Origin: a virus
Taxonomy: Duplodnaviria; Heunggongvirae; Uroviricota; Caudoviricetes
IMG/VR virus record: IMGVR_UViG_2585427793_000014
Coordinates: 1-22,505 of that record
Reading direction: 5' to 3' (one strand)
Length of the DNA: 22,505 nt
Part shown: positions 4,761 to 22,505 of the stretch, piece after piece
How positions within the stretch are numbered: the stretch's first letter is position 1
How the letters are laid out: every line of letters begins with the position of its first letter
Notes under the pieces: model-generated
Told to the model about the DNA's origin: nothing
What the model saw: only the letters and a program-made list of their open reading frames with translations
Database searches by the model: none
Program-made: the position numbers and the translations under genes

Positions 4761-5186
4761 AGCTGTGTGACGAAGTGACCACTCTTAATAGCATAACCAA
4801 TTTTTTACGTACGTAAACCACTAAATGATATTTGCGAGAATGCTACCGAGTATTGAAAACACCACTACAAATACATAAGCAAATCTCAACAAATAACCAA
4901 CAAATAATTTCCAGTGTTATTTTTAGCCGGTTTAAATTGAACCTTCAAATTATAGAGCACTTATAAATAACAGACATTAATATAAATTGGCTAATAGATT
5001 TATTTTTATTCAGCCAAGAGCCATGAATAGGATTCGATAGAAAAAAGTTCAGATAAAAATAGAGATCTACTTCACAAATCAAACGAGAAACCAAAACTTA
5101 CATCTTGAAATAATCACATTGATTAGATGAATATTTATCGCGCAGTGACATCATTTTTTAATAATAGTTCAAAAAAAGGGCTCACG

Positions 5187-6269
5187 ATGAAAAAATTAAC
5201 AGTGGCAATTTCTGCTGTAGCTGCATCAGTACTGATGGCGATGTCTGCTCAGGCAGCTGAAATTTATAATAAAGACAGTAACAAGCTGGATCTGTACGGG
5301 AAAGTTAATGCTAAGCACTACTTCTCCTCTAATGATGCAGATGATGGTGATACTACTTATGCCCGTCTTGGCTTCAAAGGTGAAACCCAAATCAACGATC
5401 AACTGACTGGTTTCGGTCAGTGGGAATATGAATTCAAAGGCAACCGCGCTGAATCTCAAGGTTCCTCCAAAGATAAAACCCGTCTTGCCTTCGCTGGCCT
5501 GAAATTCGGTGACTACGGCTCCATCGATTACGGCCGTAACTACGGTGTAGCATACGACATCGGTGCGTGGACTGACGTCCTGCCAGAATTCGGTGGTGAC
5601 ACTTGGACTCAAACCGACGTGTTCATGACTCAACGTGCAACTGGTGTTGCAACTTATCGTAACAACGACTTCTTTGGTCTGGTCGATGGCCTGAACTTTG
5701 CTGCTCAGTATCAGGGTAAAAATGACCGCACTGACGTAACTGAAGCCAATGGTGATGGTTTCGGTTTCTCCACTACTTATGAGTATGAAGGATTCGGCGT
5801 GGGTGCAACCTATGCTAAATCAGATCGCACTGACGGTCAGGTCGCCTATGGTAAGAGCAAATTCAATGCCTCCGGCAAAAATGCGGAAGTATGGGCTGCA
5901 GGCCTGAAATATGATGCGAACAATATCTATCTGGCTACCACATATTCTGAAACTCAGAATATGACCGTTTTTGGTAATAACCATATTGCAAACAAAGCAC
6001 AAAACTTTGAAGCAGTAGCACAATATCAGTTTGACTTCGGTCTGCGCCCATCTGTTGCTTACCTTCAGTCAAAAGGTAAAGACCTTGGTGTTCATGGTGA
6101 CCGAGACTTAGTCAAGTATGTCGATGTCGGTGCTACTTACTACTTTAATAAAAACATGTCCACTTTTGTTGATTACAAAATCAACTTAATTGACGATAGT
6201 AAGTTTACCAAAACAGCTGGTATTGATACCGACGACATCGCCGCTGTAGGTCTGGTTTATCAGTTCTAA
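5187..6269 (+). CDS. nmpC: Outer-membrane general porin, OmpC/OmpF/NmpC family (prophage moron)
   Basis: Signal peptide [30 protein letters not shown]..., beta-barrel porin pattern, terminal ...VGLVYQF. Position between Q and S matches nmpC of DLP12 and lc of PA-2 (recalled). ATG 5187 is preferred over the upstream in-frame ATG 5127. Confidence 0.93.
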
Positions 6270-8672: not shown

Positions 8673-9062
8673 TCAGGCGGCTGCACCCGCCGTTTTCTCG
8701 TACTTACTGATAGTGATCTCGACCTTCCCTTCCGGGATAACCGGTCCCCACTCCACCAGCATTCTTTTCACCTGGCTGTCGTCTTCCCACACACCCGCGT
8801 GGGTCAGGGCGTCAAACAGCGCCTTGTTATAGTTGTCCAGATCGCGGATCCGGTTATCCGGAGGAAACAACACGATCTCCACTGAAGCAGGTGCCGACGT
8901 TGGTTTTGGCAGACGACGTAACTGCTCAACTATTGCTGCACACGCCGCGCTCTGGAATTTGCGCCCCGCCGCGCTTATCAGGCTCTTACCTGCAAACGCC
9001 CCTTTGTTGGGGTGTCGCCAGTACGTGTTCACGCTGGGCGGAAAAGGCAGAATCAGCTTCAT
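8673..9062 (-). CDS. rusA: RusA-family Holliday junction resolvase
   Basis: LPFPPSVNTYWRH...RDLDNYNKALFDALTHAGVWEDDSQV... aligns by eye with E. coli RusA (PPS.N.Y.RH; RDLDN..KA.FDALT.AG.W.DD.QV). Confidence 0.85.
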   Translation of the reverse strand: MKLILPFPPSVNTYWRHPNKGAFAGKSLISAAGRKFQSAACAAIVEQLRRLPKPTSAPASVEIVLFPPDNRIRDLDNYNKALFDALTHAGVWEDDSQVKRMLVEWGPVIPEGKVEITISKYEKTAGAAA

Positions 9063-9385
9063 ACTTTCAGGCCCCTCTCATGTAACCAGTAGGCTGCACG
9101 CAGCCTGGCGTTTTCCTCACCGGCAAGCAGTGCGCGGATAATCCCGACCGCCTCGCTGTCGTCGTCCTTCACCGCGGTATGAAGCGTGATCCCCCGGGCC
9201 ACGCCACGCTTTATCGTGATGACGCCTTTTTTCTCCAGTGCGCGAAGATGCTCCACCGCTGTATTCACTGAACGGTATCCCAGCATGGTTGCCACCTCCT
9301 GATTGGTTGGCGGGAAGCCACGTTCTTTCTGATAAGAAATCAGCATATCCAGCACCTGCTGCTGGCATTGAGTTAACGTCGTCAT
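9059..9385 (-). CDS. LexA-like N-terminal DNA-binding domain protein lacking the S24 peptidase domain (108 aa)
   Basis: MTTLTQCQQQVLDMLISYQKERGFPPTNQEVATMLGYRSVNTAVEHLRALEKKGVITIKRGVARGITL aligns by eye at roughly 50% identity with the LexA winged-helix domain (LTARQQEVFDLI...[36 protein letters not shown]...SRGIRL). No Ser/Lys autoprotease region; ATGA overlap with the upstream gene. Confidence 0.6.
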   Translation of the reverse strand: MTTLTQCQQQVLDMLISYQKERGFPPTNQEVATMLGYRSVNTAVEHLRALEKKGVITIKRGVARGITLHTAVKDDDSEAVGIIRALLAGEENARLRAAYWLHERGLKV

Positions 9386-10035
9386 GCCGCCATCTCCCTG
9401 ACCAGTTTTTCCGCCTGCTGGCGAACCTGCGCCAGAAACGCCTCACCACATGCCTCAAGTTCATCGCGCCCGATGTAGCTGATTGCCGGTCCCTTCCAGG
9501 TCTTGTCAAAAACAGCAATAGCACCAGCGAAAAAAGCTCCTGTCGGTACCTGCTTCTCGTCTTTCGGGATAAACCAGACAGGCAGTTCAAAACCAATACG
9601 CCCACGAATAAAAGCAATATGATCTGCATATTCCGGCCACCACACTTCGCTGGTGGCAGCTTTGATCAGGAAAACATAGCGCCCGCCCTTATCACGCATG
9701 GCACTGGCATGTTTCATGATGTAACGCATGCCGGTGATGTATTGCCCATCATGTTGACTGGCGCGGCTGTATGGAGGATTACCAAAGGCAGCACCTTTAA
9801 GCCCCGCAAGGCGTTCTGACCAGTCATGCGCCAGCGCGTTGTCTTCCGCCGTGTAATACGCGGCACATTTGGCGTTATCACCGTCAGTGAACAGATCCAG
9901 AACAAACGGGCCAAACAGGGTGTTAATTCCCCAGAAAATGTTGTCCGGCGTGCACCACTGATCACCCACTTCCTTCAGTTCATGGGCTGGTTTGTTCCGC
10001 AGTTCCACCAGCTCCTGGCAATATTTATTACTCAT
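9382..10035 (-). CDS. dam: Phage Dam-type DNA N6-adenine methyltransferase
   Basis: Contains the catalytic GNPPYS (NPPY) motif; about 218 aa from ATG 10033-10035, which overlaps the upstream stop (TAATG). The track ORF extends to 10068. Confidence 0.8.
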   Translation of the reverse strand: MSNKYCQELVELRNKPAHELKEVGDQWCTPDNIFWGINTLFGPFVLDLFTDGDNAKCAAYYTAEDNALAHDWSERLAGLKGAAFGNPPYSRASQHDGQYITGMRYIMKHASAMRDKGGRYVFLIKAATSEVWWPEYADHIAFIRGRIGFELPVWFIPKDEKQVPTGAFFAGAIAVFDKTWKGPAISYIGRDELEACGEAFLAQVRQQAEKLVREMAA

Positions 10036-10523
10036 TAAGCCCCCACGTAATTCCCTGACAGATACCACTCATCACCCGATACAGCTCGCTTGCTGCTTTT
10101 CCGTAAGCACCGCTCACGACGCGCCAGAAAATTGTTTCGTTCTGGCTGGGAGTGGCTTTCACGGAATGCCGCCATCCACACGGTTGCAGCACGACGGTAT
10201 AAGCCCCTTGACTCCAGTTCTTCAGCCTGGCGGGTCAGGCACAAAATCACCCGGGGATCGTTAGTGCCGACATAGAAATTGCGCACAGGTCTGGTTTCAC
10301 GAACTGGTTGTGGTTCCGGCTCCTGCGCTCTCTCAGTCAGGCGTGGGAAATGTCTGCGTGTATCTCCTTCACAACGGTGAGCCACACGCCCACTCTGACG
10401 TAACTTGCTTGCTGACTGCAGAACGCGCTGCCGTGAGTAACCAGCAAAAGCATCCGCAATGTCTCCGGAAGTACACCCCGGATGGGCTTCAATGAATTTC
10501 TGAACTTCATTCAAAAGACTCAT
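10035..10523 (-). CDS. YfdN-like protein with PerC-like C-terminal region (putative transcriptional regulator)
   Basis: C-terminal ...LESRGLYRRAATVWMAAFRESHSQPERNNFLARRERCLRK resembles the PerC/Pch motif as I recall it; size and position (just after the O-like gene) match CPS-53 yfdN. Start at ATG 10521-10523. Confidence 0.45.
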   Translation of the reverse strand: MSLLNEVQKFIEAHPGCTSGDIADAFAGYSRQRVLQSASKLRQSGRVAHRCEGDTRRHFPRLTERAQEPEPQPVRETRPVRNFYVGTNDPRVILCLTRQAEELESRGLYRRAATVWMAAFRESHSQPERNNFLARRERCLRKSSKRAVSGDEWYLSGNYVGA

Positions 10524-10525
10524 GA

Positions 10526-11518
10526 TCACCCCCTGAATCCTACCGGGATCTGGCTGTAGTCCACGTTGTCGTAACTGGCTTTGAAGTACGGGTCTTCACG
10601 TTTTTCTGTGTGCGTGCTGACGGACGGCGATAAGCGCAGGGAAAGCTCATCCCATTTTTCCCGCAACTTCGACGGGCTGAGCACGTTACGGCACCAGAAC
10701 GGATCACGGCTGACGCGGCTGTACATTTCGCAGATTTGTTTGTGAGTACGACCATCCTGCACACACATCAGGCGAATTTCGTTTGCCCATGCTGTCCAGT
10801 TCGGTTCTTTGGGACGAACCACCTCGCCGTCACATTCGGCGGCCTGCTCGTACAGGGCGATGATTTTTTTCCAGAGACACTGTGCGCAGGTCAAATCATC
10901 CTGCGTTCCCCACTGGCGCTTTTTAGGGCTGAATACAACCGCATCAGGATGGCGAGTTAAAAACTCCTGTTCAGCCGTTTGCGTGTCCGGTTGCGAAGCG
11001 TCCGGACGAGAAGAGGTTTTATTCTCTGTAGTAATCTCTGTTGTATTCTCTGTAAGATCATTGGGCCATTTTGACCCGATGACAGCGTGTCGTTTTGAAC
11101 CAATGGATCGTGTCATTTTGCGCCCATCCATCAGGTCACTTTGACCCGATGGAGAAGTGCATTTTGACCTGATGGATTCGTTCACTTTGACCTCTTCTAA
11201 AAGCTCACTTTCATAGTTGATCGTGTAGAAGTTGGTCATGTCACGCTTCGATTTATTGAGTTGCTCGCGACGCAAAACCCCAAGTGATTTCAGGCTTGCA
11301 AATGTGCGTTTCAGAGTGGACTCTGACCAGAACGGAAACTGCTCCAGCCACTGTTCTGTCGTGTTATAAACCCAGCGAATTCCGCCATGCTCAGTGCCTG
11401 AATTCGTTTCATTCAGCCAGTAATGAAGCTGCTGCAACACAATTGCCTCATTCAGACCAATACGACATGCAAGATCACGATTTATCACAATGGGCTGGGA
11501 TGTCATTAACAGGCTCAT
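10526..11518 (-). CDS. Replication initiator (O-like, iteron-binding replisome organiser)
   Basis: N-terminal winged-helix-like domain (MSLLMTSQPIVINRDLACRIGLNEAIVLQQLHYWL...); origin-type iterons lie inside the coding sequence in the linker region, as in lambda O; position downstream of the cro/CII-like genes. ATGA overlaps at both ends. Confidence 0.75.
   Translation of the reverse strand: MSLLMTSQPIVINRDLACRIGLNEAIVLQQLHYWLNETNSGTEHGGIRWVYNTTEQWLEQFPFWSESTLKRTFASLKSLGVLRREQLNKSKRDMTNFYTINYESELLEEVKVNESIRSKCTSPSGQSDLMDGRKMTRSIGSKRHAVIGSKWPNDLTENTTEITTENKTSSRPDASQPDTQTAEQEFLTRHPDAVVFSPKKRQWGTQDDLTCAQCLWKKIIALYEQAAECDGEVVRPKEPNWTAWANEIRLMCVQDGRTHKQICEMYSRVSRDPFWCRNVLSPSKLREKWDELSLRLSPSVSTHTEKREDPYFKASYDNVDYSQIPVGFRG
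11010..11200. repeat. ori: Putative replication origin: about 6 iterons (consensus YCAYTTTGACCCGATGGA, about 22-bp period) plus 3 upstream TCTCTGT repeats, inside the O-like gene
   Basis: Directly visible repeats: CATTTTGACCCGATGAC (11065), CGTTTTGAACCAATGGATC (11088), CATTTTGCGCCCATCCATC (11110), CACTTTGACCCGATGGAG (11135), CATTTTGACCTGATGGATT (11157), CACTTTGACCTC (11179); also TCTCTGT at three places in 11020-11052. Confidence 0.65.
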
Positions 11519-11739
11519 GCCGCACCTCCGAGATGCTTCATGTTTTTTCCGGAGCGAAAGGCTATAAGCGGCATACTGACGCGGTAATTACGACCCAGCG
11601 GTTCACAAATCACCTTCTGACATTCACGGTCCACCAGGCTAACACGTAGAACATGCCCTGCAGGCGTGGTGTACCACTGACCGGGGCGAGGACAACGGAA
11701 AGTCTGATTGGTAAATCGTTTGAAAATATTCCGGATCAT
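11515..11739 (-). CDS. Hypothetical 74-aa protein
   Basis: Translationally coupled (ATGA overlaps) to both the upstream Rha-domain gene and the downstream O-like gene. No family recognised. Confidence 0.4.
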   Translation of the reverse strand: MIRNIFKRFTNQTFRCPRPGQWYTTPAGHVLRVSLVDRECQKVICEPLGRNYRVSMPLIAFRSGKNMKHLGGAA

Positions 11740-12899
11740 TTGCGCCCCCTTACCTCTGAAGAGTTCAGCGACGAATGAATAAGACGGGCAAGAAATGCCG
11801 CATCGTTAATTCGGTCATACAGACTTACAGCCAGAGGTGATTCAGCTTTTTCCAGCATGGGATAAAGCTGCTGCAACCAGACCTGATGAATTGATGAAAT
11901 GTAGGAATAGAGAACACTGGCGTTATGTGCAACGTCGCTCGGTACAGCGGGCTTTGAAAGCTGTTTCTCCATCTGGTTAAAGGCATTGATGTATGCCTCT
12001 TTGAACTGGGCAGCACGTTTACCCGTGAAACCCATAGCAAGAAACGCAAAGCCATCGCGGGTTATTTGATAGCAAGGTAGTTTGCGAGTACCGCCGTTGG
12101 GCTGGCGTACCAAAATTGATGTCTCCGCAAAATTGCGGGCACAAAACTCTGGAGAACAATCCAAAATGCGAATCTTTTTCAGAACATCGTCATGACGTTT
12201 AGAGAAGAAGTCAGCAACAGCCAAAGAAGATGTAACAGCCTGACCATCAACGATGGCAATTTCAGGTTGAGAGAGGGTTGGGAGAGTAGTCATAGTGACA
12301 GCCCCGGTAGTCAGTTTTTTAGAAAACTCACCACATGGGACGCCAATCACAGAGGTGGTGAGACGTACAGGGTTGGCGTTACCGGAGACTACCGAACCCG
12401 GCCCGACCGAAGTCGGCCCTGTACGCCCCACCATAATTTGGGCGTAGCAATGCTCATGACACGAAAAAACCGCATGAGCGCGGTTATGCTCAGTAATCAA
12501 TTTCAGGACGCCAATCCCGGCACCCGCTTTATAAGGTGCCTGAACAGTGTAACGTCCCGGAATGGCAGAATCAATGTGCTGGTGGTCCTTCACACTCAAC
12601 AAAATCACGCCTGAATTTCCACAAAGGACTAAAGCACTCATGCGGGTAGTCTTTGCGAAGATAGATAACGCGCTGAGTTTCTGGCTCCCAACGAATAACA
12701 TGGACATAAAGCCCTCTTCCATCACGAAACCAGCGGTTAAGTTCCTGCACAACTCGCCCCCCACAGTCAGGTAAAGTTCTCTGTGGTTACTTACAGCCAG
12801 GTGATTTGGTAATCTGCATTCATGCCGTAACAACAGGTGTTCAGCGACACTGACCACCAGCTGTTGCGACAAACGGTTATTTGCCGTTAAACTGTTCAT
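11736..12899 (-). CDS. Rha-domain phage regulatory protein with about 200-aa N-terminal extension
   Basis: Residues about 205-320 (LSQPEIAIVDGQAVTSSLAVADFFSKRHDDVLKKIRILD...GTRKLPCYQITRDGFAFLAMGFTGKRAAQFKEAYINAFNQME) match the Rha pattern. ATG 12897-12899 overlaps the CII-like stop (ATGA). The N-terminal 200 aa have atypical composition. Confidence 0.55.
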   Translation of the reverse strand: MNSLTANNRLSQQLVVSVAEHLLLRHECRLPNHLAVSNHRELYLTVGGELCRNLTAGFVMEEGFMSMLFVGSQKLSALSIFAKTTRMSALVLCGNSGVILLSVKDHQHIDSAIPGRYTVQAPYKAGAGIGVLKLITEHNRAHAVFSCHEHCYAQIMVGRTGPTSVGPGSVVSGNANPVRLTTSVIGVPCGEFSKKLTTGAVTMTTLPTLSQPEIAIVDGQAVTSSLAVADFFSKRHDDVLKKIRILDCSPEFCARNFAETSILVRQPNGGTRKLPCYQITRDGFAFLAMGFTGKRAAQFKEAYINAFNQMEKQLSKPAVPSDVAHNASVLYSYISSIHQVWLQQLYPMLEKAESPLAVSLYDRINDAAFLARLIHSSLNSSEVRGRK

Positions 12900-13691: not shown

Positions 13692-13781
13692 ACAATATGT
13701 ACCTCCGATATACATATTACATGATTGAGATGAACCTTCAAGATACTTGTACCCTATCGGTACAAAGGTTTTAATTTCGTT
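13692..13781. promoter_or_regulatory. OR-like divergent control region: two operator palindromes sharing a (A/T)TGTACC half-site, PR-like and PRM-like promoters
   Basis: Palindromes AATATGTA-N9-TACATATT (13694-13718) and TTGTACC-CTATC-GGTACAA (13747-13765). Minus-strand promoter candidate: -35 TTGAAG (13736-13741), 16-bp spacer, -10 TAATAT (13714-13719). Plus-strand candidate: -35 TTGTAC (13747-13752), -10 TTAATT/TAATTT (13771-13777), giving a near-leaderless cI message. Confidence 0.6.
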
Positions 13782-14456
13782 ATGAAAACAGTCCATGACA
13801 TCCGGCGGTCTAACGCCAGAAAACTGAGAGATGGTGTTGGCGGGAATTCTTCCTTTGCCACCATGATTGATCGCGAGCCAACCCAGACCAGCAGGTTTAT
13901 GGGAGATGGTGCTACTAAAAATATCGGTGACAGCATGGCACGGCACATCGAAAAATGTTTCGACCTGCCTGTCGGATGGCTTGATCAAGAACACCAGACA
14001 ACAAACATCACAAAAAAACCTGATGTTTCAATTACTAACAAACAAATAACGTTAGTCCCTGTCATATCATGGGTACAGGCCGGAGCATGGAAAGAAGTTG
14101 GCTATTCTGAGGTTGATTTGAGCACAGCAGAAACTTATCCCTGCCCTGTACCCTGTGGCGAAATGACTTATATCTTGCGGGTGATTGGTGATTCAATGAT
14201 TGATGAGTACCGCCCGGGAGACATGATTTTTGTTGATCCTGAAGTCCCTGCCTGCCACGGTGACGACGTTATTGCATTGATGCACGATACAGGCGAAACC
14301 ACCTTCAAGCGGTTGATAGAAGATGGAACACAGCGTTATCTCAAAGCATTAAACCCAAACTGGCCTGAGCCTTACATTAAGATTAACGGTAATTGCTCTA
14401 TAATTGGTACAGTAATTTTCTCAGGAAAACCAAGAAGATACAAAATAAAGGCCTAA
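13782..14456 (+). CDS. cI: CI-type prophage repressor with C-terminal S24 (LexA-like) autopeptidase domain
   Basis: C-terminal VIGDSMIDEYRPGDMIFVDPE...ETTFKRLIEDGTQRYLKALNPNWPEPYIKING..CSIIGTVI aligns by eye with lambda CI (GNSM...[23 protein letters not shown]...CSVVGKVI). N-terminal DNA-binding region; divergent from cro. Confidence 0.9.
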   Translation: MKTVHDIRRSNARKLRDGVGGNSSFATMIDREPTQTSRFMGDGATKNIGDSMARHIEKCFDLPVGWLDQEHQTTNITKKPDVSITNKQITLVPVISWVQAGAWKEVGYSEVDLSTAETYPCPVPCGEMTYILRVIGDSMIDEYRPGDMIFVDPEVPACHGDDVIALMHDTGETTFKRLIEDGTQRYLKALNPNWPEPYIKINGNCSIIGTVIFSGKPRRYKIKA

Positions 14457-14469
14457 TCAATATTTATAA

Positions 14470-14491
14470 CCTGCTTCGGCAGGTTTTTTTA
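14470..14491 (+). terminator. Intrinsic terminator downstream of cI
   Basis: CCTGC-TTCG-GCAGG hairpin followed by a run of seven T. Confidence 0.7.
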
Positions 14492-14494
14492 TAC

Positions 14495-14528
14495 TTGACA
14501 ATGTACCCTTGAGATACATAATGTATCT
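14495..14528 (+). promoter_or_regulatory. PL-like early-left promoter with overlapping operator
   Basis: -35 TTGACA (14495-14500), 16-17 bp spacer, -10 CATAAT/ATAATG (14517-14523). The spacer contains ATGTACC (same half-site as in the OR region) and the palindrome AGATACATAATGTATCT (14512-14528) overlaps the -10. Confidence 0.6.
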
Positions 14529-15122
14529 AAAAGAAACATGCCACAGGCAAGATTAAACAAAATTTGCTTGTAACACGGCGTATGGCACATGCGTCGTTAG
14601 CGGTCTGGGGACGTTAAAGGGGACAATCCACTCCTTGCTCGGGCAAACAAACCAGGTAGCCGGAATGTGCAAGTCAATGAGGATGCTGATAAGACGCCTA
14701 ACCAGCGTGGCGATTCGGTTTGACGCCTGGGAAGAGACCAGGGTGCAACGATGAGGGCATTTATGGAGCCGCGACAAAGTGTGGTGCCGTAACTGGCTAA
14801 GTGCTCTCAGCGTTGTGGTAATCCGCGAAATGGCGCGGCGGTAAGTATGGCGGGGGTACTCTTTCCCCCTTGAGGACACCGGATTGTCAGGTTGACCATA
14901 CGCCTGAGTGACAACCCCACCACAACAGCCACTGCTTTGGCGGTACCAGTTTGTGCACTTGCTTCCGGCTGGTACCGCTCTTTTTACAAAACAGAGAAGA
15001 GCATCACCGGACGACGGGCTCATAACCCAATCCATCCGGGCGGCTGCCACCGCAGGTGTTCTTCTCTGTTTTGTGGAGAAACCAACCGACCTTGCAGGGT
15101 CGATATGATGAGGAGCAGCAAA
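14529..15122 (+). promoter_or_regulatory. Long (about 590 nt) structured untranslated leader of the early-left operon; no N-like ORF
   Basis: No plausible ORF on either strand (only compositionally junk ORFs). Several stable inverted repeats: GGGGGTACTCTTTCCCCC (about 14863-14881); GCGGTACCAG/CTGGTACCGC (14940-14949 / 14975-14984) followed by TCTTTTTAC; ACAAAACAGAGAAGAG / TTCTTCTCTGTTTTGT (about 14986-15001 / 15061-15076). A boxA-like CGCTCTTTTTACAA lies at about 14981-14994. Confidence 0.35.
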
Positions 15123-15485
15123 ATGGCTAGCGAACGCAGTACTGATGTGCAGGCATTTATCGGGGAGTTGGACGGCGGCGTATTTGAAACCAAAATCGGC
15201 GCAGTTCTCAGTGAAGTCGCTTCAGGTGTGATGAACACGAAAACCAAAGGTAAGGTCTCACTCAACCTGGAAATCGAACCATTTGATGAGAACCGTGTGA
15301 AAATCAAACACAAACTCTCATATGTTCGCCCGACTAACCGCGGGAAAATTTCTGAAGAAGACACCACCGAAACGCCGATGTATGTCAATCGCGGTGGTCG
15401 CCTGACTATTCTGCAGGAAGACCAGGGACAATTACTGACTCTTGCCGGTGAACCTGACGGAAAACTCCGCGCAGCAGGTCATTAA
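15123..15485 (+). CDS. Hypothetical 120-aa protein (YfdP-like by position and size)
   Basis: GAGGAG ribosome-binding site 8 nt upstream of ATG 15123; first gene after the leader; followed by the YfdQ-like gene. No arginine-rich motif, so not an N homolog. Confidence 0.5.
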   Translation: MASERSTDVQAFIGELDGGVFETKIGAVLSEVASGVMNTKTKGKVSLNLEIEPFDENRVKIKHKLSYVRPTNRGKISEEDTTETPMYVNRGGRLTILQEDQGQLLTLAGEPDGKLRAAGH

Positions 15486-15550
15486 TATCGTTCTTAATTA
15501 ACTGATTATTTATCTCATCACTGAATATCTTTATATAGTGAGGACTTATT

Positions 15551-16375
15551 ATGTCTCAGAACTTAGACGCAACCGCAATTAATCAAATCCATGCTCTTAT
15601 TTCTGCTCAGGGTGTTAATGAAATTATCAGTAAGATTGGTGCCGATGCTGTGGCATTGCCTGAGAATTTCCGCATTCATGATCTGGAAAAATTTAATTTA
15701 AATCGCTTCCGTTTCCGTGGTGCGCTTTCCACTGCCAGCATCGATGACTTTACCCGTTATTCTAAAGATCTTGCAGATGAAGGCACCCGCTGCTTTATCG
15801 ACGCCGATAATATGCGTGCCGTCAGTGTACTTAACCTGGGTACTATCGATGAACCAGGTCACGCAGATAACACCGCCACTCTCAAACTGAAAAAGACAGC
15901 ACCGTTTTCTGCCCTGTTGTCTGTTAACGGCGAGCGTAACTCCCAGAAGTCACTGGCAGAATGGATTGAAGACTGGGCCGACTACCTTGTGGGCTTTGAT
16001 GCTAATGGTGACGCCATTCAGGCAACCAAAGCGGCTGCGGCGATTCGTAAAATCACAATTGAAGCGAACCAGACAGCTGATTTTGAAGATAATGACTTCA
16101 GCGGCAAACGCTCCCTGATGGAGTCAGTCGAAGCGAAGACCAAAGACATTATGCCAGTGGCATTTGAATTTAAATGCGTTCCGTTTGAAGGCCTGAAAGA
16201 ACGTCCGTTTAAATTACGCCTCAGCATTATCACTGGCGATCGTCCTGTACTGGTTCTGCGCATTATTCAGCTGGAAGCGGTGCAGGAAGAAATGGCTAAC
16301 GAATTTCGTGATCTGCTTGTTGAGAAATTCAAAGACAGCAAAGTCGAAACCTTTATTGGTACTTTCACCGCCTGA
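15551..16375 (+). CDS. DUF2303 / YfdQ-like protein (274 aa)
   Basis: Length and sequence character match my recollection of CPS-53 YfdQ; GAGGA ribosome-binding site 7 nt upstream. Confidence 0.7.
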
Positions 16376-16502
16376 TTTCATTACTGCAAATGCCCCTGCG
16401 GGGGCATTTATGGAAACGTAATTAACTCAATAATCACCGGATGGTGAGAGCTTCCTTTTACCAGAATTCAGCGCGGTGCAGCGCATATACGTGGAGAACA
16501 AA

Positions 16503-17039
16503 ATGTCATTTATTAAAACTTTTTCCGGGAAGCATTTTTATTATGACAAGATAAATAAAGACGACATCGTGATTAACGATATCGCAGTTTCCCTCTCAAA
16601 TATCTGTCGCTTTGCAGGGCATCTTTCACACTTCTACAGCGTCGCCCAACATGCGGTGCTTTGCAGCCAGCTGGTACCGCAGGAGTTTGCTTTCGAAGCG
16701 TTAATGCATGATGCAACAGAAGCATATTGCCAGGACATCCCCGCGCCACTGAAACGACTTCTTCCTGACTATAAACGGATGGAAGAAAAAATAGACGCCG
16801 TAATCCGTGAGAAATACGGGTTACCTCCTGTTATGAGCACGCCAGTGAAATATGCCGATCTCATTATGCTGGCAACCGAACGCCGCGATCTCGGGCTTGA
16901 TGATGGCTCTTTCTGGCCTGTACTGGAAGGCATCCCGGCAACAGAGATGTTCAAAGTTATTCCACTGTCACCAGGCCATGCCTACGGGATGTTTATGGAA
17001 CGTTTTAACGAGTTATCGGAATTACGCAAATGTGCATAA
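16503..17039 (+). CDS. HD-domain phosphohydrolase, YfdR-like (178 aa)
   Basis: H...HD metal-binding signature (VAQHAVLCSQL ... LMHDATEAY...D); GGAG ribosome-binding site 6 nt upstream of ATG 16503. Size matches K-12 YfdR. Confidence 0.8.
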   Translation: MSFIKTFSGKHFYYDKINKDDIVINDIAVSLSNICRFAGHLSHFYSVAQHAVLCSQLVPQEFAFEALMHDATEAYCQDIPAPLKRLLPDYKRMEEKIDAVIREKYGLPPVMSTPVKYADLIMLATERRDLGLDDGSFWPVLEGIPATEMFKVIPLSPGHAYGMFMERFNELSELRKCA

Positions 17040-17908
17040 CTCATGTAGTTAGTTTTTCTGGCGGGAAAACATCTGCATATCTTGTTCACCTGATGGAAGA
17101 ACAAAGAAAGACTGGAAATAACGTCTGCTACATCTTTATGGATACCGGTTGCGAACATCCGCTGACATACCGCTTTATTCGGGAGGTTGTGAAGTTCTGG
17201 GGCATACCGCTAACTGTGTTGCAGGTCGATATAAATCCAGAGCTTGGGCAGCCAAATGGTTATACGGAATGGGAACCAAAGGATATTCAGACACGAATGC
17301 CGGTGCTTAAACCGTTTATGGACATGGTAAAAAAATATGGCACGCCATACATCGGCGGCGCGTTCTGCACTGACAGATTAAAACTCACCCCCTTCACAAA
17401 ATACTGCGATGACCATTTCGGACGAGGGAATTACATCACATGGCTGGGTATTCGTGCAGACGAACCTCGTAGGCTGAAACCGAAATCGGGCGTCCGGTAT
17501 CTTGCCGAGCTATCTGATTTTGATAAGTCGGATGTTATCCGGTGGTGGCATAAACAACCTTTTGATTTGCAAATCCCGGAGCACCTCGGGAACTGTGTTT
17601 TCTGCATCAAAAAGTCCACGCAAAAGCTGGGGCTTGCATGTAAAGACGAACCTGGTCTGATGCGAGTTTTTAATGAGCTGGTTACAGGTAAACACGTCCG
17701 GGATGGTCACCGAAAGACAAATAAAGACGTTATGTACCGTGGTCATCTGAGCCTTGACGGGATTGCCAGAATGTATGCCGACAGCGACTACAGAAATTTG
17801 TATCAGGCGATGGTGCAAGCCAGGCGATTCGATACCGGCTCGTGTTCAGAGTCATGTGAAATCTGGGGGGATCAATTGGAATTGAAATTCGAAGAGGTGG
17901 TGGCATGA
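17030..17908 (+). CDS. PAPS-reductase-like PP-loop ATP-pyrophosphatase family protein
   Basis: N-terminal VVSFSGGKTSAYLVHL PP-loop (SGGKDS-type) motif and FMDTGCEHPLTYRF, characteristic of the phosphoadenosine phosphosulfate reductase family; C-terminal Cys cluster (CSESCEIW). Overlaps the upstream gene by 10 nt. Confidence 0.8.
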   Translation: MCITHVVSFSGGKTSAYLVHLMEEQRKTGNNVCYIFMDTGCEHPLTYRFIREVVKFWGIPLTVLQVDINPELGQPNGYTEWEPKDIQTRMPVLKPFMDMVKKYGTPYIGGAFCTDRLKLTPFTKYCDDHFGRGNYITWLGIRADEPRRLKPKSGVRYLAELSDFDKSDVIRWWHKQPFDLQIPEHLGNCVFCIKKSTQKLGLACKDEPGLMRVFNELVTGKHVRDGHRKTNKDVMYRGHLSLDGIARMYADSDYRNLYQAMVQARRFDTGSCSESCEIWGDQLELKFEEVVA

Positions 17909-18108
17909 CAATCGTAAAAACCCATACCGGCATTGTGATCACCAAAGACGGCCCGCAGGTAAAAAAACTTCACCAGACAGAGCGGATGTGGGTCGTCGGC
18001 AAAAACGAGTTTTACCACAAAGAAACCGGACGCCGCCACTTTGCAGAAAATACGCGCCGCCGACTACTGATCGACACCATCAAGCCTATCGAGGTGAAGC
18101 ATGTTTAA
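17905..18108 (+). CDS. Hypothetical 67-aa protein
   Basis: ATGA overlap with the upstream stop suggests translational coupling in the operon. No family recognised. Confidence 0.4.
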   Translation: MTIVKTHTGIVITKDGPQVKKLHQTERMWVVGKNEFYHKETGRRHFAENTRRRLLIDTIKPIEVKHV

Positions 18109-18340
18109 ACAGAACGAAAAATCTATCGCTCAAATTGCTGAGTATATCCCGCGTGCGTGCCGGGGTATGCAGTTGCAGGAAGCCAAAGCGCGCCTGGAGA
18201 AAAAAATTGCGCTCTATATCGATGACGGCTGTGATGCTGCCGTTCTTAACGCAGCGTTCGCGCCAGCTCTTAACAGTCATACGCGGGAGTCTTTTTTTTC
18301 GCGCATCGCAGCGCAGATCCGCAAAGGAGGCAGCCAGTGA
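18101..18340 (+). CDS. Hypothetical 79-aa protein
   Basis: Overlaps both neighbouring genes in the same operon. No family recognised. Confidence 0.4.
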   Translation: MFKQNEKSIAQIAEYIPRACRGMQLQEAKARLEKKIALYIDDGCDAAVLNAAFAPALNSHTRESFFSRIAAQIRKGGSQ

Positions 18341-18981
18341 GTAACCGTTTTTACATGATGTGCTCGCGTGAAACTGTGGGTAATAACGCTTCATTCCATT
18401 GCCATAACGGCAATGGTTACAGTTCTGATATCGATCGCGCTCATGTTTACACGCTGGAAGAAGCCCAAAAAGCCTGGAATTGTGGGCGAGATATAGATCA
18501 GCCTGTTTGTGCCGATAGTGTGGATACAATGGCAGTGTGGCACGTTGATTGCCAGTACATCCCTACAGAAAACCTGATTGAGCCAGATTGCACTGCGTAT
18601 GTGGCCTACAAAAAAGGTAGCTGGAACGGCAACGATGTTTACTGGCTTCAACACGGTGGATTGCCAACAGATGACTTCAGTAAAGCGACCATCTTTAGCG
18701 TCGCCAACAAAAACGAACCAGGAATAGTTTGGTTGCCATTTTCCATTGCTGATGCAGCAAAGCGCCGGACGTTCAATATCAATAACTTTAACCGCAGAAC
18801 AATGGTTCAGGGCGCAGGTTTGGTCATGCCTGACTGGTTGAAAGAGCAGAACAGAAGAAAGAAGTCGCGAAGCGGGAAGGTGCGTTGGAATTGTCCGCAT
18901 TGCGGAAAAATAACCTGGCAGTACAGCCCATATGATTTTGAAGGCTGTAGTGATTACAACTGTGAAGGATGGCGAGAATGA
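18337..18981 (+). CDS. Hypothetical 214-aa protein with C-terminal zinc-ribbon-like motif
   Basis: Cys-rich regions (FHCHNGNGY; WNCPHCGK...CSDYNCEGW). Overlaps both neighbours in the operon. Confidence 0.5.
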   Translation: MSNRFYMMCSRETVGNNASFHCHNGNGYSSDIDRAHVYTLEEAQKAWNCGRDIDQPVCADSVDTMAVWHVDCQYIPTENLIEPDCTAYVAYKKGSWNGNDVYWLQHGGLPTDDFSKATIFSVANKNEPGIVWLPFSIADAAKRRTFNINNFNRRTMVQGAGLVMPDWLKEQNRRKKSRSGKVRWNCPHCGKITWQYSPYDFEGCSDYNCEGWRE

Positions 18982-19577
18982 CAATTGACTATCAGGCACT
19001 GCGTGAAAAGGCAGAGAAAGCAACGAGTGGTGTGTGGTCGCTCGAATATGGAGAGGGCCGATTTGATGGTGATGATGCACTAATTCATCGCGAGGCTGCT
19101 GGATATATTCCCATTTGCAGAATTGAAGGAGCGCATCCAGAAAGCGGTTTCGATGAAGATTTCCAAATGGAACAGCAGGCCAATGCTGAATTCATCGCCG
19201 CAGCCAATCCGGCTACCGTCTTGGCGCTGCTGGATGAACGGGAAAGGAACCAGCAATACATAAAACGCCGCGACCAGGAGAACGAGGATATTGCGCTAAC
19301 GGTAGGGAAGTTGCGCGTTGAGCTTGAGGAAGCAAAATCAAAACTCAACGAGCAGCGTGAGTATTACGAAGGTGTTATCTCTGATGGGTGCAAGCGTATT
19401 GCTGAACTGGAAGCGCGGGAAGTTCAATTACCGACTCGCTACGACCTTCGATATGGACACCCGATAAATGCAGATGAGCGACAAGTCATGATACCTAAAG
19501 AAAATGGCAGTTGGCTTTACCTGATTGACCTAGAACACGCATTACGCGTCGCTGACATTCGCATCAAAGGAGAGTGA
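18978..19577 (+). CDS. Ead/Ea22-like protein
   Basis: MTIDYQALREKAEKATSGVWSL... N-terminus and a central coiled-coil region, as in Ea22-like prophage proteins (recalled). ATG 18978 overlaps the upstream stop (ATGA) and has a GAAGG ribosome-binding site 9 nt upstream. Confidence 0.55.
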   Translation: MTIDYQALREKAEKATSGVWSLEYGEGRFDGDDALIHREAAGYIPICRIEGAHPESGFDEDFQMEQQANAEFIAAANPATVLALLDERERNQQYIKRRDQENEDIALTVGKLRVELEEAKSKLNEQREYYEGVISDGCKRIAELEAREVQLPTRYDLRYGHPINADERQVMIPKENGSWLYLIDLEHALRVADIRIKGE

Positions 19578-19578
19578 T

Positions 19579-19842
19579 ATGGCAACTTTGACAAAAAAAG
19601 AACAAGCATGGTTGAGCGAATTACAGGACGTTCTTGATCGCTGCCCATCACCGAAAAAAATTGGTTTTTACACCATTGGCGATAAAAGCATTTACCTGTA
19701 TGACCTGCGCCGCATGGATGAAATCATGGAGGCTCTTGATAATCGTTCGTCAATGGATTGGTGTGTTGCTGTCCATGATATGAATGCCGGATTTGAAGAA
19801 AAGATTTTGTTCCCCTCGTCAGTTGAAAGCACAGCGGGTTAA
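19579..19842 (+). CDS. Hypothetical 87-aa protein
   Basis: Starts 2 nt after the upstream stop. No family recognised. Confidence 0.45.
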   Translation: MATLTKKEQAWLSELQDVLDRCPSPKKIGFYTIGDKSIYLYDLRRMDEIMEALDNRSSMDWCVAVHDMNAGFEEKILFPSSVESTAG

Positions 19843-19852
19843 GGAGTAACAC

Positions 19853-20596
19853 ATGACCACTATTACCAAAGAGCGACTGCTGACAATCAAGCAGTGGCGC
19901 GAAACATACGGACCTGGTAGCAACGTTGTACTGCCAGCAGAAGAAGCGGAAGAACTGGCACGGATTGCACTGGCATCGTTGGAAGCAAAACCAATAGGTG
20001 CATTCCACATTGCAGAACAGCAAGTTGACGGCACAAGTGACTACCTCAAGGATGGAGAATGGCCTATTGATAATGGAATTATTGAGGTCTACGCCGCTCC
20101 CCCCGTTCCAGTAGTACCGGAAGAAAAACCAATGCCTAACGCTCTAAGCATGCTTGAAAGAGAGATCACACAACTGATTGGTGATGCGCAGGAAGCCACT
20201 GTTACTGGCTATGAGTTAATCGCTGAAGCTTGGCGTTTGATGGATGGACAAGACCCTAAAACCAGCGATTGGCATAGCAAGGCTTCGAAGTATTTAAATT
20301 CCAATATTGTAGAAAAAGTTGATGATGACCGTATTGAGGCTGTTAAGGCTGTTTTGCGCAGACTGGCTGTCAACTATCCGGTAACTCCGGATGGTTGGAT
20401 AAGCTGTAGTGAGCGAATGCCAGATGATGGTCAGCACGTAATTATTTTATGTGATGGCGCATTCGTTCTTTATGCGCAATATCGAGACGGAGAGTTTTTC
20501 GATATTGTCCGCAATGGTGATGAATATTTCGAAACACAGAGTCGCAATGTAACCGACTGGATGCGGCTACCGGAACCGCCGCAGGAGGTGAAGTGA
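19853..20596 (+). CDS. DUF551-domain protein (247 aa)
   Basis: C-terminal ...DGWISCSERMPDDGQHVIIL...YAQYRDGEF matches the DUF551 pattern common in enterobacterial prophages (recalled). Confidence 0.55.
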   Translation: MTTITKERLLTIKQWRETYGPGSNVVLPAEEAEELARIALASLEAKPIGAFHIAEQQVDGTSDYLKDGEWPIDNGIIEVYAAPPVPVVPEEKPMPNALSMLEREITQLIGDAQEATVTGYELIAEAWRLMDGQDPKTSDWHSKASKYLNSNIVEKVDDDRIEAVKAVLRRLAVNYPVTPDGWISCSERMPDDGQHVIILCDGAFVLYAQYRDGEFFDIVRNGDEYFETQSRNVTDWMRLPEPPQEVK

Positions 20597-21168
20597 TGAA
20601 CAACTTAATGATCGATCTTGAGACGATGGGGAAAAATAAGGATGCACCGATCGTTTCCATTGGCGCGGTGTTCTTCACTCCAGAAACCGGAGACATCGGA
20701 CAAGAATTCTATGCGGTTGTCAGCCTAGACAGTGCTATGAAGCAAGGAGCTACACCTGACGGCGATACCATCCTGTGGTGGTTGAAACAAAGCCCTGAAG
20801 CGCGAGCTGCAATCTGTATTGATGATACTTTGTCGATCAGCGATGCTCTCTCAGAACTAAACCATTTCATTAACCGGCACGCAGACAATACGAAATATTT
20901 AAAAGTCTGGGGTAACGGGGCCACCTTCGACAACGTAATTTTACGTGGAGCTTATGAGCGAGCAGGACAAATTTGCCCGTGGGCATACTGGAATGACCAC
21001 GATGTACGCACGATCGTTACGCTTGGGCGTTCCATCGGATTCGACCCCAAAATGGACATGCCTTTCGATGGCGAACGGCACAACGCCCTGGCCGATGCCC
21101 GTCATCAGGCAAAATATGTTTCCGCTATCTGGCAGAAATTAATTCCTGCCACCAGCACAGAATTATGA
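20596..21168 (+). CDS. DnaQ-like (DEDDh) 3'-5' exonuclease
   Basis: Exo motifs MIDLETMG (Exo I), WGNGATFDNVIL (Exo II), HNALADARH (Exo III). GGAGG ribosome-binding site 7 nt upstream of ATG 20596; the track ORF begins at GTG 20593. Confidence 0.8.
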   Translation: MNNLMIDLETMGKNKDAPIVSIGAVFFTPETGDIGQEFYAVVSLDSAMKQGATPDGDTILWWLKQSPEARAAICIDDTLSISDALSELNHFINRHADNTKYLKVWGNGATFDNVILRGAYERAGQICPWAYWNDHDVRTIVTLGRSIGFDPKMDMPFDGERHNALADARHQAKYVSAIWQKLIPATSTEL

Positions 21169-21204
21169 TTTTCCCGGGTGCAGCCGGTTTTGATGGAGAA
21201 AATT

Positions 21205-21477
21205 ATGAACACCTTGTTTTTACTGATGGCTGAATTCAATACCCCAAACATTGAACTCTCAGCAGTTAGCCAAAAGTACTTTGGCATGAGTCCAGCCACG
21301 GCAGAAGCAAAAGCAAACGCTTGTAAGTTGCCCGTTCCAACATATCGCATCGGCACATCACAAAAAGCAAAACGTTGCATCAATATTCAGGATCTTGCGG
21401 AATACATAGACAAAAGGCGAGAAGAAGGGCGTGCTGAGTGGGAAAGGGTCAGAACCCATAAACAAAGGCTCATTTAA
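21205..21477 (+). CDS. PrtN-family small DNA-binding protein (possible excisionase-like or regulator)
   Basis: MNTLFLLMAEFNTPNIELSAVSQKYFGMSPATAEAKANACKLPVPTYRIGTSQKAKRCINIQDLAEYID resembles the pyocin-activator PrtN family as I recall it. GGAG ribosome-binding site before ATG 21205; last gene of the plus-strand operon. Confidence 0.5.
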   Translation: MNTLFLLMAEFNTPNIELSAVSQKYFGMSPATAEAKANACKLPVPTYRIGTSQKAKRCINIQDLAEYIDKRREEGRAEWERVRTHKQRLI

Positions 21478-21490
21478 ATAGAATATAAAT

Positions 21491-21512
21491 AAACCCATCC
21501 AAAGATGGGTTT
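21491..21512. terminator. Bidirectional intrinsic terminator between convergent genes
   Basis: AAACCCATC-CAAA-GATGGGTTT hairpin flanked by A-rich and T-rich tracts on both sides. Confidence 0.5.
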
Positions 21513-21981
21513 ATTCATAATGTTGAAGAGCAGCGAGTATCAGTTTTTTATGCCGTTTAACCATAGTTTTAGATATCTCAACTGCACATCGAACTTGTCT
21601 CATACAATGATCTGTAATGCGACCTTTTAGCACGTCACCATATTGGATGGCTATTTTCTCTTTAATAATTTCAAGATCGAAAGCAGCATGAGCCTCAATG
21701 CAATTAACAAATGAGTCCCATTTAAGAAAATCATGGTCCTCTCTATTAATTTCGCCCTGAAAAGCCATAAGATCATTGTTTCTCTTAATAAATTCATTTA
21801 TATCTGAATTTATTAGAAGAACTAAAAGAGGTTCACAGCAAACAACCACCATATATTTTACTTTAGGTGGGGTCGTAAAATCACAATGAAGATACAATAC
21901 ATCACCGGGTGATATACCTCTTTCACGACTAAAATTAGCCTTAAAATCAGGAGGGAAACAATCACCCAGCATAAGTATCAA
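21511..21981 (-). CDS. Uncharacterised 156-aa protein, candidate toxin/effector partner of the Panacea-domain protein
   Basis: AT-rich ORF whose start overlaps the upstream Panacea gene stop by 4 nt (ATGA). No family recognised. Confidence 0.4.
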   Translation of the reverse strand: MILMLGDCFPPDFKANFSRERGISPGDVLYLHCDFTTPPKVKYMVVVCCEPLLVLLINSDINEFIKRNNDLMAFQGEINREDHDFLKWDSFVNCIEAHAAFDLEIIKEKIAIQYGDVLKGRITDHCMRQVRCAVEISKTMVKRHKKLILAALQHYE

Positions 21982-22505
21982 TATCCGTTCTTCAGATAAT
22001 CCAGTATTAATTTGCTATTTTTTAGCTGTGCAACTATCGATTCCAAAGACATCTCACCATTGTGATCTGCCTGTTCCCATGCCGCGTCATGGCTCATGGT
22101 TCTGATAGCTTCAAAGGACATGTTTCCAAGCATCGCGATAGACTTATCAATACACTCTAAATCTGAGTCACTAAAAAAGTCTTCATCAGCTTCACGGCTC
22201 GGCACAATCGTCATACCTGATACAGAAAATGCTTTTCGCACAGAATCGACATCACAACCATTAGGAATGTAACGTCCATCTCCACGAGCAATTTTTATAA
22301 TATCGTATGTGTTGCTTGCTACAGGCCCATCCTTCATAGCGTTATAGTGATCGCCCGTTATGAGGCGTCCAAAACTTTCAAGGTGAAACCTGTCAGCATA
22401 ATAAAGAATTTTTCCGACATGATAGATATCTGGGATCGGTGCTTTAGAGGCGACGTACAGAATGGCCTCTAAAGCCTTTTCTGAATCAAACCTTACATTT
22501 AGCAT
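21978..22505 (-). CDS. Panacea-domain (DUF4065 / GepA / SocA-like) protein, candidate antitoxin (PanA-like)
   Basis: ...GKILYYADRFHLESFGRLITGDHYNAMKDGPVASNTYD... matches the Panacea core as I recall it (KLLYYA...G.P.....A...GPV). ATG sits exactly at the window edge, so the true start may lie beyond the window. Confidence 0.55.
   Translation of the reverse strand: MLNVRFDSEKALEAILYVASKAPIPDIYHVGKILYYADRFHLESFGRLITGDHYNAMKDGPVASNTYDIIKIARGDGRYIPNGCDVDSVRKAFSVSGMTIVPSREADEDFFSDSDLECIDKSIAMLGNMSFEAIRTMSHDAAWEQADHNGEMSLESIVAQLKNSKLILDYLKNGY

Follow-up and report, generated by a model that had tools for sequence, protein, structure and literature searches.

Exchangeable early cassettes as a probable explanation of the yfdP-yfdQ-yfdR-ninC cluster in a lambdoid Escherichia coli prophage

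Herein, we analysed four co-directional open reading frames (ORFs) at positions 15123-17908 of a 22,505-nucleotide stretch of viral DNA (Caudoviricetes; IMG/VR record IMGVR_UViG_2585427793_000014, positions 1 to 22,505), which is referred to below as the window and is part of a lambdoid E. coli prophage. The four ORFs lie downstream of a predicted, near-consensus PL-like promoter and encode YfdP, YfdQ, YfdR and an ortholog of lambda NinC. We consider it fairly probable that the cluster is a mosaic string of exchangeable early cassettes for host takeover or anti-defence in an intact lambdoid prophage, and not one pathway. The cluster would form the promoter-proximal part of the early-left operon of a prophage of the CPS-53/mEp460/LLS/ST64B type, and its products would be the first made after derepression, whether by induction or by infection.

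A preliminary description of the same DNA, made from the sequence alone, had given the limits of the four-gene cluster exactly. It had also coupled the PP-loop enzyme to YfdPQR in one module, and this point did not hold, because the site behind yfdR is a swap site and further copies of NinC are found in the nin regions of other phages. The wording 'YfdP/YfdQ/YfdR-like' named the right family and was too weak, as the first three genes are the same genes as those of CPS-53 (KpLE1) in E. coli K-12 (98-99% identity), with like order and spacing. In a near-identical prophage, the four products carry the RefSeq names YfdP, YfdQ family protein, 5'-deoxynucleotidase YfdR and 'phosphoadenosine phosphosulfate reductase domain-containing protein'.

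An exchangeable slot behind yfdR

The comparison covered 81 loci, made up of 80 viral contigs with an essentially identical yfdQ together with the window and reference loci. The slot after yfdR was filled by a YfdS-like gene in 67 of the 81 loci, by NinC in 7, and by other genes in a few. Both the YfdS-like and the NinC genes started at the same point, 9 nt before the end of yfdR (10-nt overlap), and the gene after yfdR in CPS-53 begins at this same overlap. Megablast homology of the window to mEp460 and to Stx2c phages ended at 17037, which is the yfdR/ninC junction. K-12 YfdS was also considered as a truncated NinC, and this was ruled out because the two proteins have no similarity.

The phages of the mEp460 type share with the window the yfdP-yfdQ-yfdR start, the small ORFs, the DUF551 protein, the DEDD exonuclease and the excisionase, and like the window they have a single O-like replication gene and no recombination (Rec) module. 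However, the place of NinC is taken in mEp460 by a YfdS-like gene, giving the order YfdS-o67-o79 (o67 and o79 are the small ORFs of 67 and 79 aa), and the small ORFs of mEp460 are 91-96% identical to those of the window. Ss-VASD and Stx2a phages share the NinC-o67-o79 block with the window at 90-98% identity, whereas their YfdP and YfdQ are only 52-59% identical and YfdR is absent, so that the identity levels of the two parts are decoupled. Lambda, O276 and APC_JM3.2 carry NinC after NinB in the early-right nin region; to our knowledge, lambda has no yfdPQR, and the nin-equivalent region of the window has no NinC. Considering the decoupled identities, the swap site and the copies in nin regions, NinC is one of several cassettes able to fill the slot, and on this comparative evidence the cluster is not one system.

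The yfdP-yfdQ pair, YfdR and host replication

YfdQ of the window matched DUF2303 (PF10065) over residues 7-272 with E = 6e-93 (311 bits vs a cut-off of 26.6) and is built of two SRP9/14-like alpha-beta3-alpha modules. When viral contigs were scanned with a diversified alignment of YfdQ, all hits were near-identical E. coli prophages, and divergent relatives were taken from an annotated phage collection. Six phages were compared (the window, Ss-VASD, Xanthomonas CP2, Vibrio 75E35.1, Pseudomonas LPPA56 and Thalassomonas BA3), and in all six a YfdP homolog lay directly upstream of the YfdQ homolog, the YfdP proteins of the five divergent phages being 39-59% identical. In four of the six, the neighbours of the pair encode an annealing protein (Erf or RecT), an exonuclease of the YqaJ/RecE type, SSB and/or a DEDD exonuclease, and LPPA56 has, one gene downstream of yfdQ, a homolog of YfdR (39% identity). 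Judged from this gene order, yfdP-yfdQ is an old, strictly adjacent two-gene pair that usually stands within recombination/replication modules. No match to the PADLOC defence-system profiles was obtained for YfdP, YfdQ or YfdR.

In Vibrio phage 75E35.1, the gene next to yfdP-yfdQ encodes a DEDD exonuclease (L088 8305-8850), the counterpart of the DEDD (Rv2179c/RNase T-like) exonuclease that lies further downstream in the window, where the preliminary description had correctly seen a DnaQ-like enzyme. A tblastn comparison of these exonucleases with each other yielded no match at E <= 0.01. Mutations in the vibriophage enzyme lead to escape from retron Ec48 (Piel et al., preprint 10.1101/2021.05.05.442762).

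The PDB entry 9o7m, 'YfdQ Protein', contains 36 chains, of which chains A and B are not YfdQ; its YfdQ sequence is from a CP2-like Xanthomonas phage and is 98.8% identical to MET23-P3. A literature search for YfdQ and cryo-EM found no paper describing this entry, and Foldseek of the YfdQ model against a PDB library (entries to 2026-04-08, without 9o7m) gave nothing significant. The DUF2303 protein gp10 of phage JC1 has been reported as virion-associated. YfdQ as a virion protein was rejected, given that the PDB holds no near-identical capsid or portal protein of a CP2-like phage, and 9o7m is for this reason probably a recombinant assembly. YfdQ may be an oligomeric factor that binds nucleic acid or replisome proteins.

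None of the tested early-left ORFs had a Pfam or PHROG match to Red, RecET, Erf, Sak or Gam, in agreement with the earlier statement that lambda-type recombination genes are missing, and the sole nuclease found there was the DEDD exonuclease. Ten Chi sites (GCTGGTGG) are present in the 22.5-kb window, 3 on the plus and 7 on the minus strand, a density about twice the E. coli average. This richness agrees with the Chi-rich, Rec-module-less lambdoid phages described for LLS. A class of lambdoid phages without a Rec module, comprising LLS, ST64B and relatives, has been described, in which yfdP/Q/R-type genes are common, though they are found outside it too (PMC12315714); the early-left ORFs of the window, having no Rec match, fit this class.

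Since the pair takes the operon position of the Rec modules of other lambdoid phages, and no such module was found here, YfdP-YfdQ could replace the missing Red-type module with a recombination function not yet recognised, as an annealing protein or as a protector of DNA ends. The Erf/RecT, exonuclease and SSB neighbours in four of the six phages are in keeping with this, as are the 36-chain assembly of 9o7m with two chains other than YfdQ and the sensitivity of a yfdQ deletion to methyl methanesulfonate (MMS; work cited in PMC4776307). Even so, we regard such a function as unlikely.

YfdR of the window matched the HD protein Atu1052 (PDB 2gz4) with E = 2e-13, and the HD residues H50 and H69-D70 are in place. 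Its Pfam scores were lower: the YfbR-like HD family PF12917 gave E = 3e-5 with 24.2 bits, formally below the gathering cut-off of 25.9, PF13023 gave 16.9 bits vs a cut-off of 22.5, and PF01966 gave no match at E <= 0.01. These sub-threshold scores reflect the sensitivity of the Pfam models, as K-12 YfdR differs from the protein of the window at 3 of 178 residues. The HD domain named in the preliminary description therefore stands, on the basis of the 98% identity to K-12 YfdR, the 2gz4 match and the residues above. As for the families it had named, DUF2303 was recovered, PF01507 matched at the N-terminus of NinC only (see below), and PF01966 was not found.

K-12 YfdR, a 5'-deoxynucleotidase by its RefSeq product name, has been reported to have deoxynucleoside monophosphate phosphatase activity and to bind domain I of DnaA (Noguchi & Katayama 2016, PMC4776307). 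Extra copies of K-12 yfdQ-T inhibit initiation, and this effect requires yfdQ and yfdR plus yfdS or yfdT, yfdP being dispensable (PMC4776307); both the DnaA binding and the inhibition had been stated correctly in the preliminary description. YfdS is a DUF551 protein (PMC4776307). No homolog of YfdS or YfdT was found in the window, which has NinC in place of the YfdS of CPS-53, and its 247-aa DUF551 protein, located 2 kb downstream, carries the same domain as K-12 YfdS.

YfdP, YfdQ and YfdR would act on host replication or on the DNA-transaction machinery. In K-12, YfdR together with YfdQ and with YfdS or YfdT appears to damp initiation at oriC, and its function in the phage is, in view of the overexpression data, most likely the early shut-down or diversion of host replication. 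A 'host takeover' role is plausible for both YfdQ and YfdR. The window also encodes an O-like initiator (10526-11518, minus strand; phrog_391, E = 1e-99), seemingly the whole replication module, and its early-right operon showed no helicase loader of the P, DnaC or DnaB type, the same having been reported for LLS. For a phage with an O-like initiator and no recognisable helicase loader, a factor that blocks the contact between DnaA and DnaB would, speculatively, be attractive.

One coupled nucleotide/DNA-modification pathway, in which YfdR processes nucleotides, NinC adenylates or thiolates nucleotides or DNA, the DEDD enzyme edits and YfdP/YfdQ serve as a scaffold, seems quite unlikely. Most genes from yfdR onward overlap by 4-13 nt, as is usual in operons with translational coupling, all of them are co-directional, and NinC follows yfdP-yfdQ in two divergent lineages. 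The genome of Vibrio phage 75E35.1, moreover, holds YfdP, YfdQ, a DEDD exonuclease and a NinC-Dam fusion. However, this fusion lies ~6 kb from yfdPQ and on the opposite strand, and CP2 and BA3 have YfdPQ with neither YfdR nor NinC in the stretches examined. The unrelated YfdS in the slot of most loci, the copies of NinC in nin regions and the decoupled identities of the YfdPQ and NinC blocks likewise argue for separate cassettes.

It is very unlikely, in our view, that the genes mainly benefit the lysogen through stress tolerance, as has been proposed for CPS-53 in K-12, and not the phage. Deletions of CPS-53, yfdQ and yfdS have phenotypes with H2O2, acid and MMS, and a role in the control of phage SW1 points in the same direction. 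Unlike CPS-53, however, the prophage of the window is intact and keeps cI, cro, the PL-like promoter and the 600-nt leader, so that the genes stand behind a repressor-type promoter with operator-like sites (predicted), and the same pair occurs in phages not known as temperate, such as CP2. K-12 has lost this control region by deletion. Its homology to the window starts only ~25 nt before yfdP, and its yfdM is a 91-aa fragment of the gene that is full length in the window (228 aa; 97% identical); by these two features, CPS-53 is a deletion derivative of a phage like that of the window. The parts missing from CPS-53 in this comparison are the O-like gene, Rha, cII, cro and cI, together with PL and the leader. 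The early-right operon of the window holds, at 9769-10894 (minus strand), homologs of yfdM, yfdN and yfdO with 96-97% identity to K-12. The prophage had been described beforehand as an intact relative of CPS-53, which was borne out by these homologs and by the retained cI, cro and leader.

Identity and probable chemistry of NinC

The PP-loop protein of the window is identical to lambda NinC (lambdap64, 290 aa) at 226 of 290 residues (78%), over the full length and without gaps, and has the same PP-loop and cysteine motifs. The lambda gene, which can be dispensed with under laboratory conditions, stands behind NinB in the nin region of the early-right operon, whereas that of the window follows yfdR in the early-left operon. 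The S-x-SGG(K/R)TS PP-loop, the DTGxEH motif, C113, C126, C189xxC192 and C276 were invariant in 39 NinC homologs; the loop of the window protein is SGGKTS (residues 10-15), with S10, G11, G12 and S15 invariant. The N-terminal position of this SGGxDS-type loop and the Rossmann-like fold place NinC in the PP-loop ATP pyrophosphatase superfamily. A confident AF2 (AlphaFold) model (pLDDT 86) was compared by Foldseek, and the closest structures were reductases of adenosine phosphosulfate (APS) and phosphoadenosine phosphosulfate (PAPS), followed by the PP-loop sulphur transferases LarE, MnmA, NcsA and TtuA, all with TM-scores of 0.34-0.39. TilS and NAD/GMP synthetases were matched in fold as well.

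The Pfam family PAPS_reduct (PF01507) matched with E = 5.9e-10 at N-terminal residues 5-72 only. The designation 'PAPS-reductase-like enzyme' in the preliminary description was thus right as to family; that the gene is lambda NinC had gone unrecognised, as had its 55% identical anti-Dnd homolog. The best PADLOC profile was SspD (7e-16), which scores above the Pfam PAPS model and was followed by BrxP (2e-5) and DndC (1.6e-4). The SspD alignment was partial (NinC residues 5-150 to model positions 2-123 of 277), and while the intact PP-loop and conserved cysteines of SspD/DndC are shared, only the N-terminal half aligns. The DndC equivalog TIGR03183 gave 16.3 bits, far from its cut-off of 290.4, and no homologs of the partners dndA/D/E or sspA/B/C were seen in the parts of the window examined. 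From its motifs, NinC is probably a divergent PP-loop enzyme of the SspD/DndC/APS-reductase clade, one that would use ATP and a cysteine or Fe-S sulphur relay.

That NinC is an auxiliary metabolic CysH-type PAPS/APS reductase boosting sulphate assimilation of the host, as suggested by the filing of PHROG 424 under 'auxiliary metabolic gene', by several phage-genome papers, by the PF01507 match and by the best Foldseek hits, is highly improbable, since it scored only 20.4 bits against the CysH NCBIfam equivalog PRK02090 (cut-off 154), lacks the catalytic motif ECG[LI]H (its C-terminus is GSCSESCE), has an intact ATP-type SGGKTS where CysH has the degenerate SFGIQA, resembles these structures with TM-scores of 0.34-0.38 and is matched better by SspD than by the PAPS model. 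In addition, E. coli already carries cysH, and ninC as an early lytic gene behind a repressor-controlled promoter (predicted) would be silent in the lysogen. NinC would accordingly not be an enzyme of sulphate assimilation, and the label 'PAPS reductase' denotes its fold family, not its reaction.

The homolog p0018 of Vibrio phage 44E38.1 aligns with 96% of the window protein at 55% identity, shares all invariant motifs, and consists of a NinC-like PAPS domain with an added C-terminal Dam methylase. When p0018 and p0019 were moved into a sister phage, this phage could infect a host protected by Dnd phosphorothioation-restriction (Piel et al., preprint 10.1101/2021.05.05.442762), a result cited in a later paper as a phage PAPS reductase promoting escape from Dnd. 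The PAPS-Dam fusion stands in the anti-Dnd locus of 44E38.1 and 75E35.1, whereas Dam is a separate gene of another operon in the window, where it belongs to the same Pfam family as the domain fused to p0018 and shares 28% identity with the C-terminal half of P0094 (E = 2e-12). By analogy with the vibriophage homolog, the most likely role of NinC is that of an anti-restriction factor that counters phosphorothioate-based (Dnd/Ssp) defence by an action on nucleic acid, and a role in DNA modification is plausible.

A bolder extension of these ideas can be put forward tentatively, although we think it rather unlikely. YfdP-YfdQ, often with YfdR, would be a widespread, so far unrecognised phage DNA-metabolism module, in which YfdQ, as a new type of oligomeric, nucleic-acid-binding protein, and a YfdR seated on the DnaB-contact surface of DnaA divert host initiation and helicase loading to phages with an O-like initiator but without a helicase loader. 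NinC, for its part, would disarm defences that sense phosphorothioates, acting as a stand-alone PP-loop enzyme that transfers sulphur or adenylyl groups and is directed at nucleic acid.

Several points weigh against a string of independent takeover and anti-defence cassettes. The yfdP-yfdQ pair is followed by NinC in two divergent lineages, that of the window and that of the Ss-VASD/Stx2a phages, which may reflect some functional link between NinC and the pair. The PL-like promoter and its control by a repressor are predictions, and so is the place of the cluster as the first genes transcribed. We know of no report of phosphorothioates or other NinC-dependent modifications in lambda DNA. The vibriophage experiment transferred two genes at once, one of them with its PAPS domain fused to Dam, so that the anti-Dnd effect reported is that of the two genes together (Piel et al.). 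Finally, the replication effect in K-12 was seen only with multicopy supply, and deletion of yfdQRST gave no replication phenotype (PMC4776307).

Promoter, leader and prophage context

The coordinates of the operon and its control elements are collected in Table 1. The PL-like promoter, which the preliminary description had also recognised, lies directly 3' of the cI terminator. Its spacer contains the operator-like sequence TGTACCCTTGAGATACA, which resembles TGTACCCTATCGGTACA, a perfect palindrome at 13748-13764 in the cro-cI intergenic region, and a further palindrome, GATACATAATGTATC, overlaps the -10 element. The promoter with these sites would look like the arrangement expected of a repressor-controlled PL.

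The leader RNA has a folding z-score of -5.45 (100 shuffles) and carries a 25-nt inverted repeat (14986-15010/15050-15074). No Rfam match was found in 14530-15122, and the leader had no convincing ORF and no N-like ORF; PHROG matches of leader ORFs fall on both strands and are contradictory and thus uninformative. Many E. coli prophage matches start at 14556/7, indicating that the leader is common to prophages of different immunity regions, and it may be an antitermination or processing element.

Table 1. Features of the early-left region and the yfdM gene of the window
Feature	Position	Strand	Remarks
cI-type (LexA/S24 family) repressor gene	13782-14456	+	ORF; named 'LexA family protein' by RefSeq at the corresponding place in a prophage with 99.3% identity
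Intrinsic-terminator-like hairpin closing cI transcription	14468-14485	+	7-bp stem with 4 GC pairs, then T-run
PL-like promoter (predicted)	14495-14522	+	TTGACA-16-CATAAT; 11/12 match to sigma-70 consensus
Operator-like TGTACCCTTGAGATACA	14502-14518	+	In promoter spacer; 76% match to palindrome TGTACCCTATCGGTACA
Palindrome GATACATAATGTATC	14513-14527	+	Overlaps -10 element
Leader, ~600 nt, no annotated gene	14530-15122	+	Strongly structured; between promoter and yfdP
yfdP, 120 aa	15123-15485	+	99% identical to K-12 YfdP; phrog_204, E = 1e-49
yfdQ, 274 aa, DUF2303	15551-16375	+	Two alpha-beta3-alpha modules; 99% identical to K-12 YfdQ
yfdR, 178 aa, HD-domain 5'-deoxynucleotidase (assigned by homology)	16503-17039	+	98% identical to K-12 YfdR
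ninC ortholog, 292 aa, PP-loop enzyme	17030-17908	+	10-nt overlap with yfdR; 78% identical to lambda NinC
Small ORF, 67 aa (o67)	17905-18108	+	One of the phrog_1226/phrog_1344 pair; translationally coupled with the 79-aa ORF
Small ORF, 79 aa (o79)	18101-18340	+	One of the phrog_1226/phrog_1344 pair; coupled to the 67-aa ORF
Cysteine-rich ORF, 214 aa	18337-18981	+	Early-left operon
Ead/Ea22-like ORF	18969-19577	+	Early-left operon
87-aa ORF	19579-19842	+	Early-left operon
DUF551-domain protein, 247 aa	19853-20596	+	PF04448, E = 7.7e-19, residues 181-244
DEDD 3'-5' exonuclease (Rv2179c-like)	20593-21168	+	PF16473, E = 1.3e-75; 98% identical in mEp460
Phage Dam-family N6-adenine methyltransferase, full-length yfdM, 228 aa	9382-10068	-	PF05869, E = 2.6e-44

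For yfdR, the ATG at 16503 was taken as the start, as in RefSeq, the GTG at 16476 of the ORF list being an upstream extension. Among 5,426 complete E. coli genomes, 3 match the region 14400-21500 of the window over its full length with 99.3% identity, and 5,012 contain partial matches.

Other features of the prophage were noted as well. A 108-aa protein (9059-9385, minus strand) has only the LexA DNA-binding domain (PF01726, E = 4.6e-19) and no protease domain, and it could compete for SOS boxes. A C4 antisense RNA (12351-12438, minus strand; 82 bits) and an isrK Hfq-binding RNA (12463-12539, minus strand; 59 bits) both scored above the Rfam gathering score and fall within the 5' part of an Ash/Rha-domain ORF (11736-12899), a placement suggesting that an antirepressor-like gene is under antisense control in the manner of P1/P7. 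Between the Q antiterminator and the lysis genes stands a complete gene for a general porin (5127-6269, plus strand; PF00267, E = 1.7e-151), on the opposite strand, and it looks like a lysogenic-conversion gene. At the other end, a Panacea-domain (SocA-like antitoxin) gene (21978-22505, minus strand) runs off the window and overlaps by 4 nt a 156-aa ORF without a family match (21511-21981, minus strand); judged from this arrangement, the two are probably a toxin-antitoxin pair at the end of the prophage, which adjoins a dusA fragment in a near-identical genome.

The genes as well as their arrangement were known and annotated before, no sequence is new, and parts of the 7-kb arrangement are found in thousands of E. 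coli genomes. Lambda NinC and many phage 'PAPS reductases' that virome studies count as auxiliary genes of sulphur metabolism are, however, probably misnamed, and have the look of PP-loop relatives of SspD and DndC. The yfdP-yfdQ pair, conserved beside recombination genes in Escherichia, Vibrio, Pseudomonas, Xanthomonas and Thalassomonas phages, offers a testable lead of its own. An anti-phosphorothioate role, if true, would at last give a function to lambda ninC, a gene known for ~40 years, and from either lead a role could emerge for a long-unexplained gene found in model phages and in E. coli K-12.

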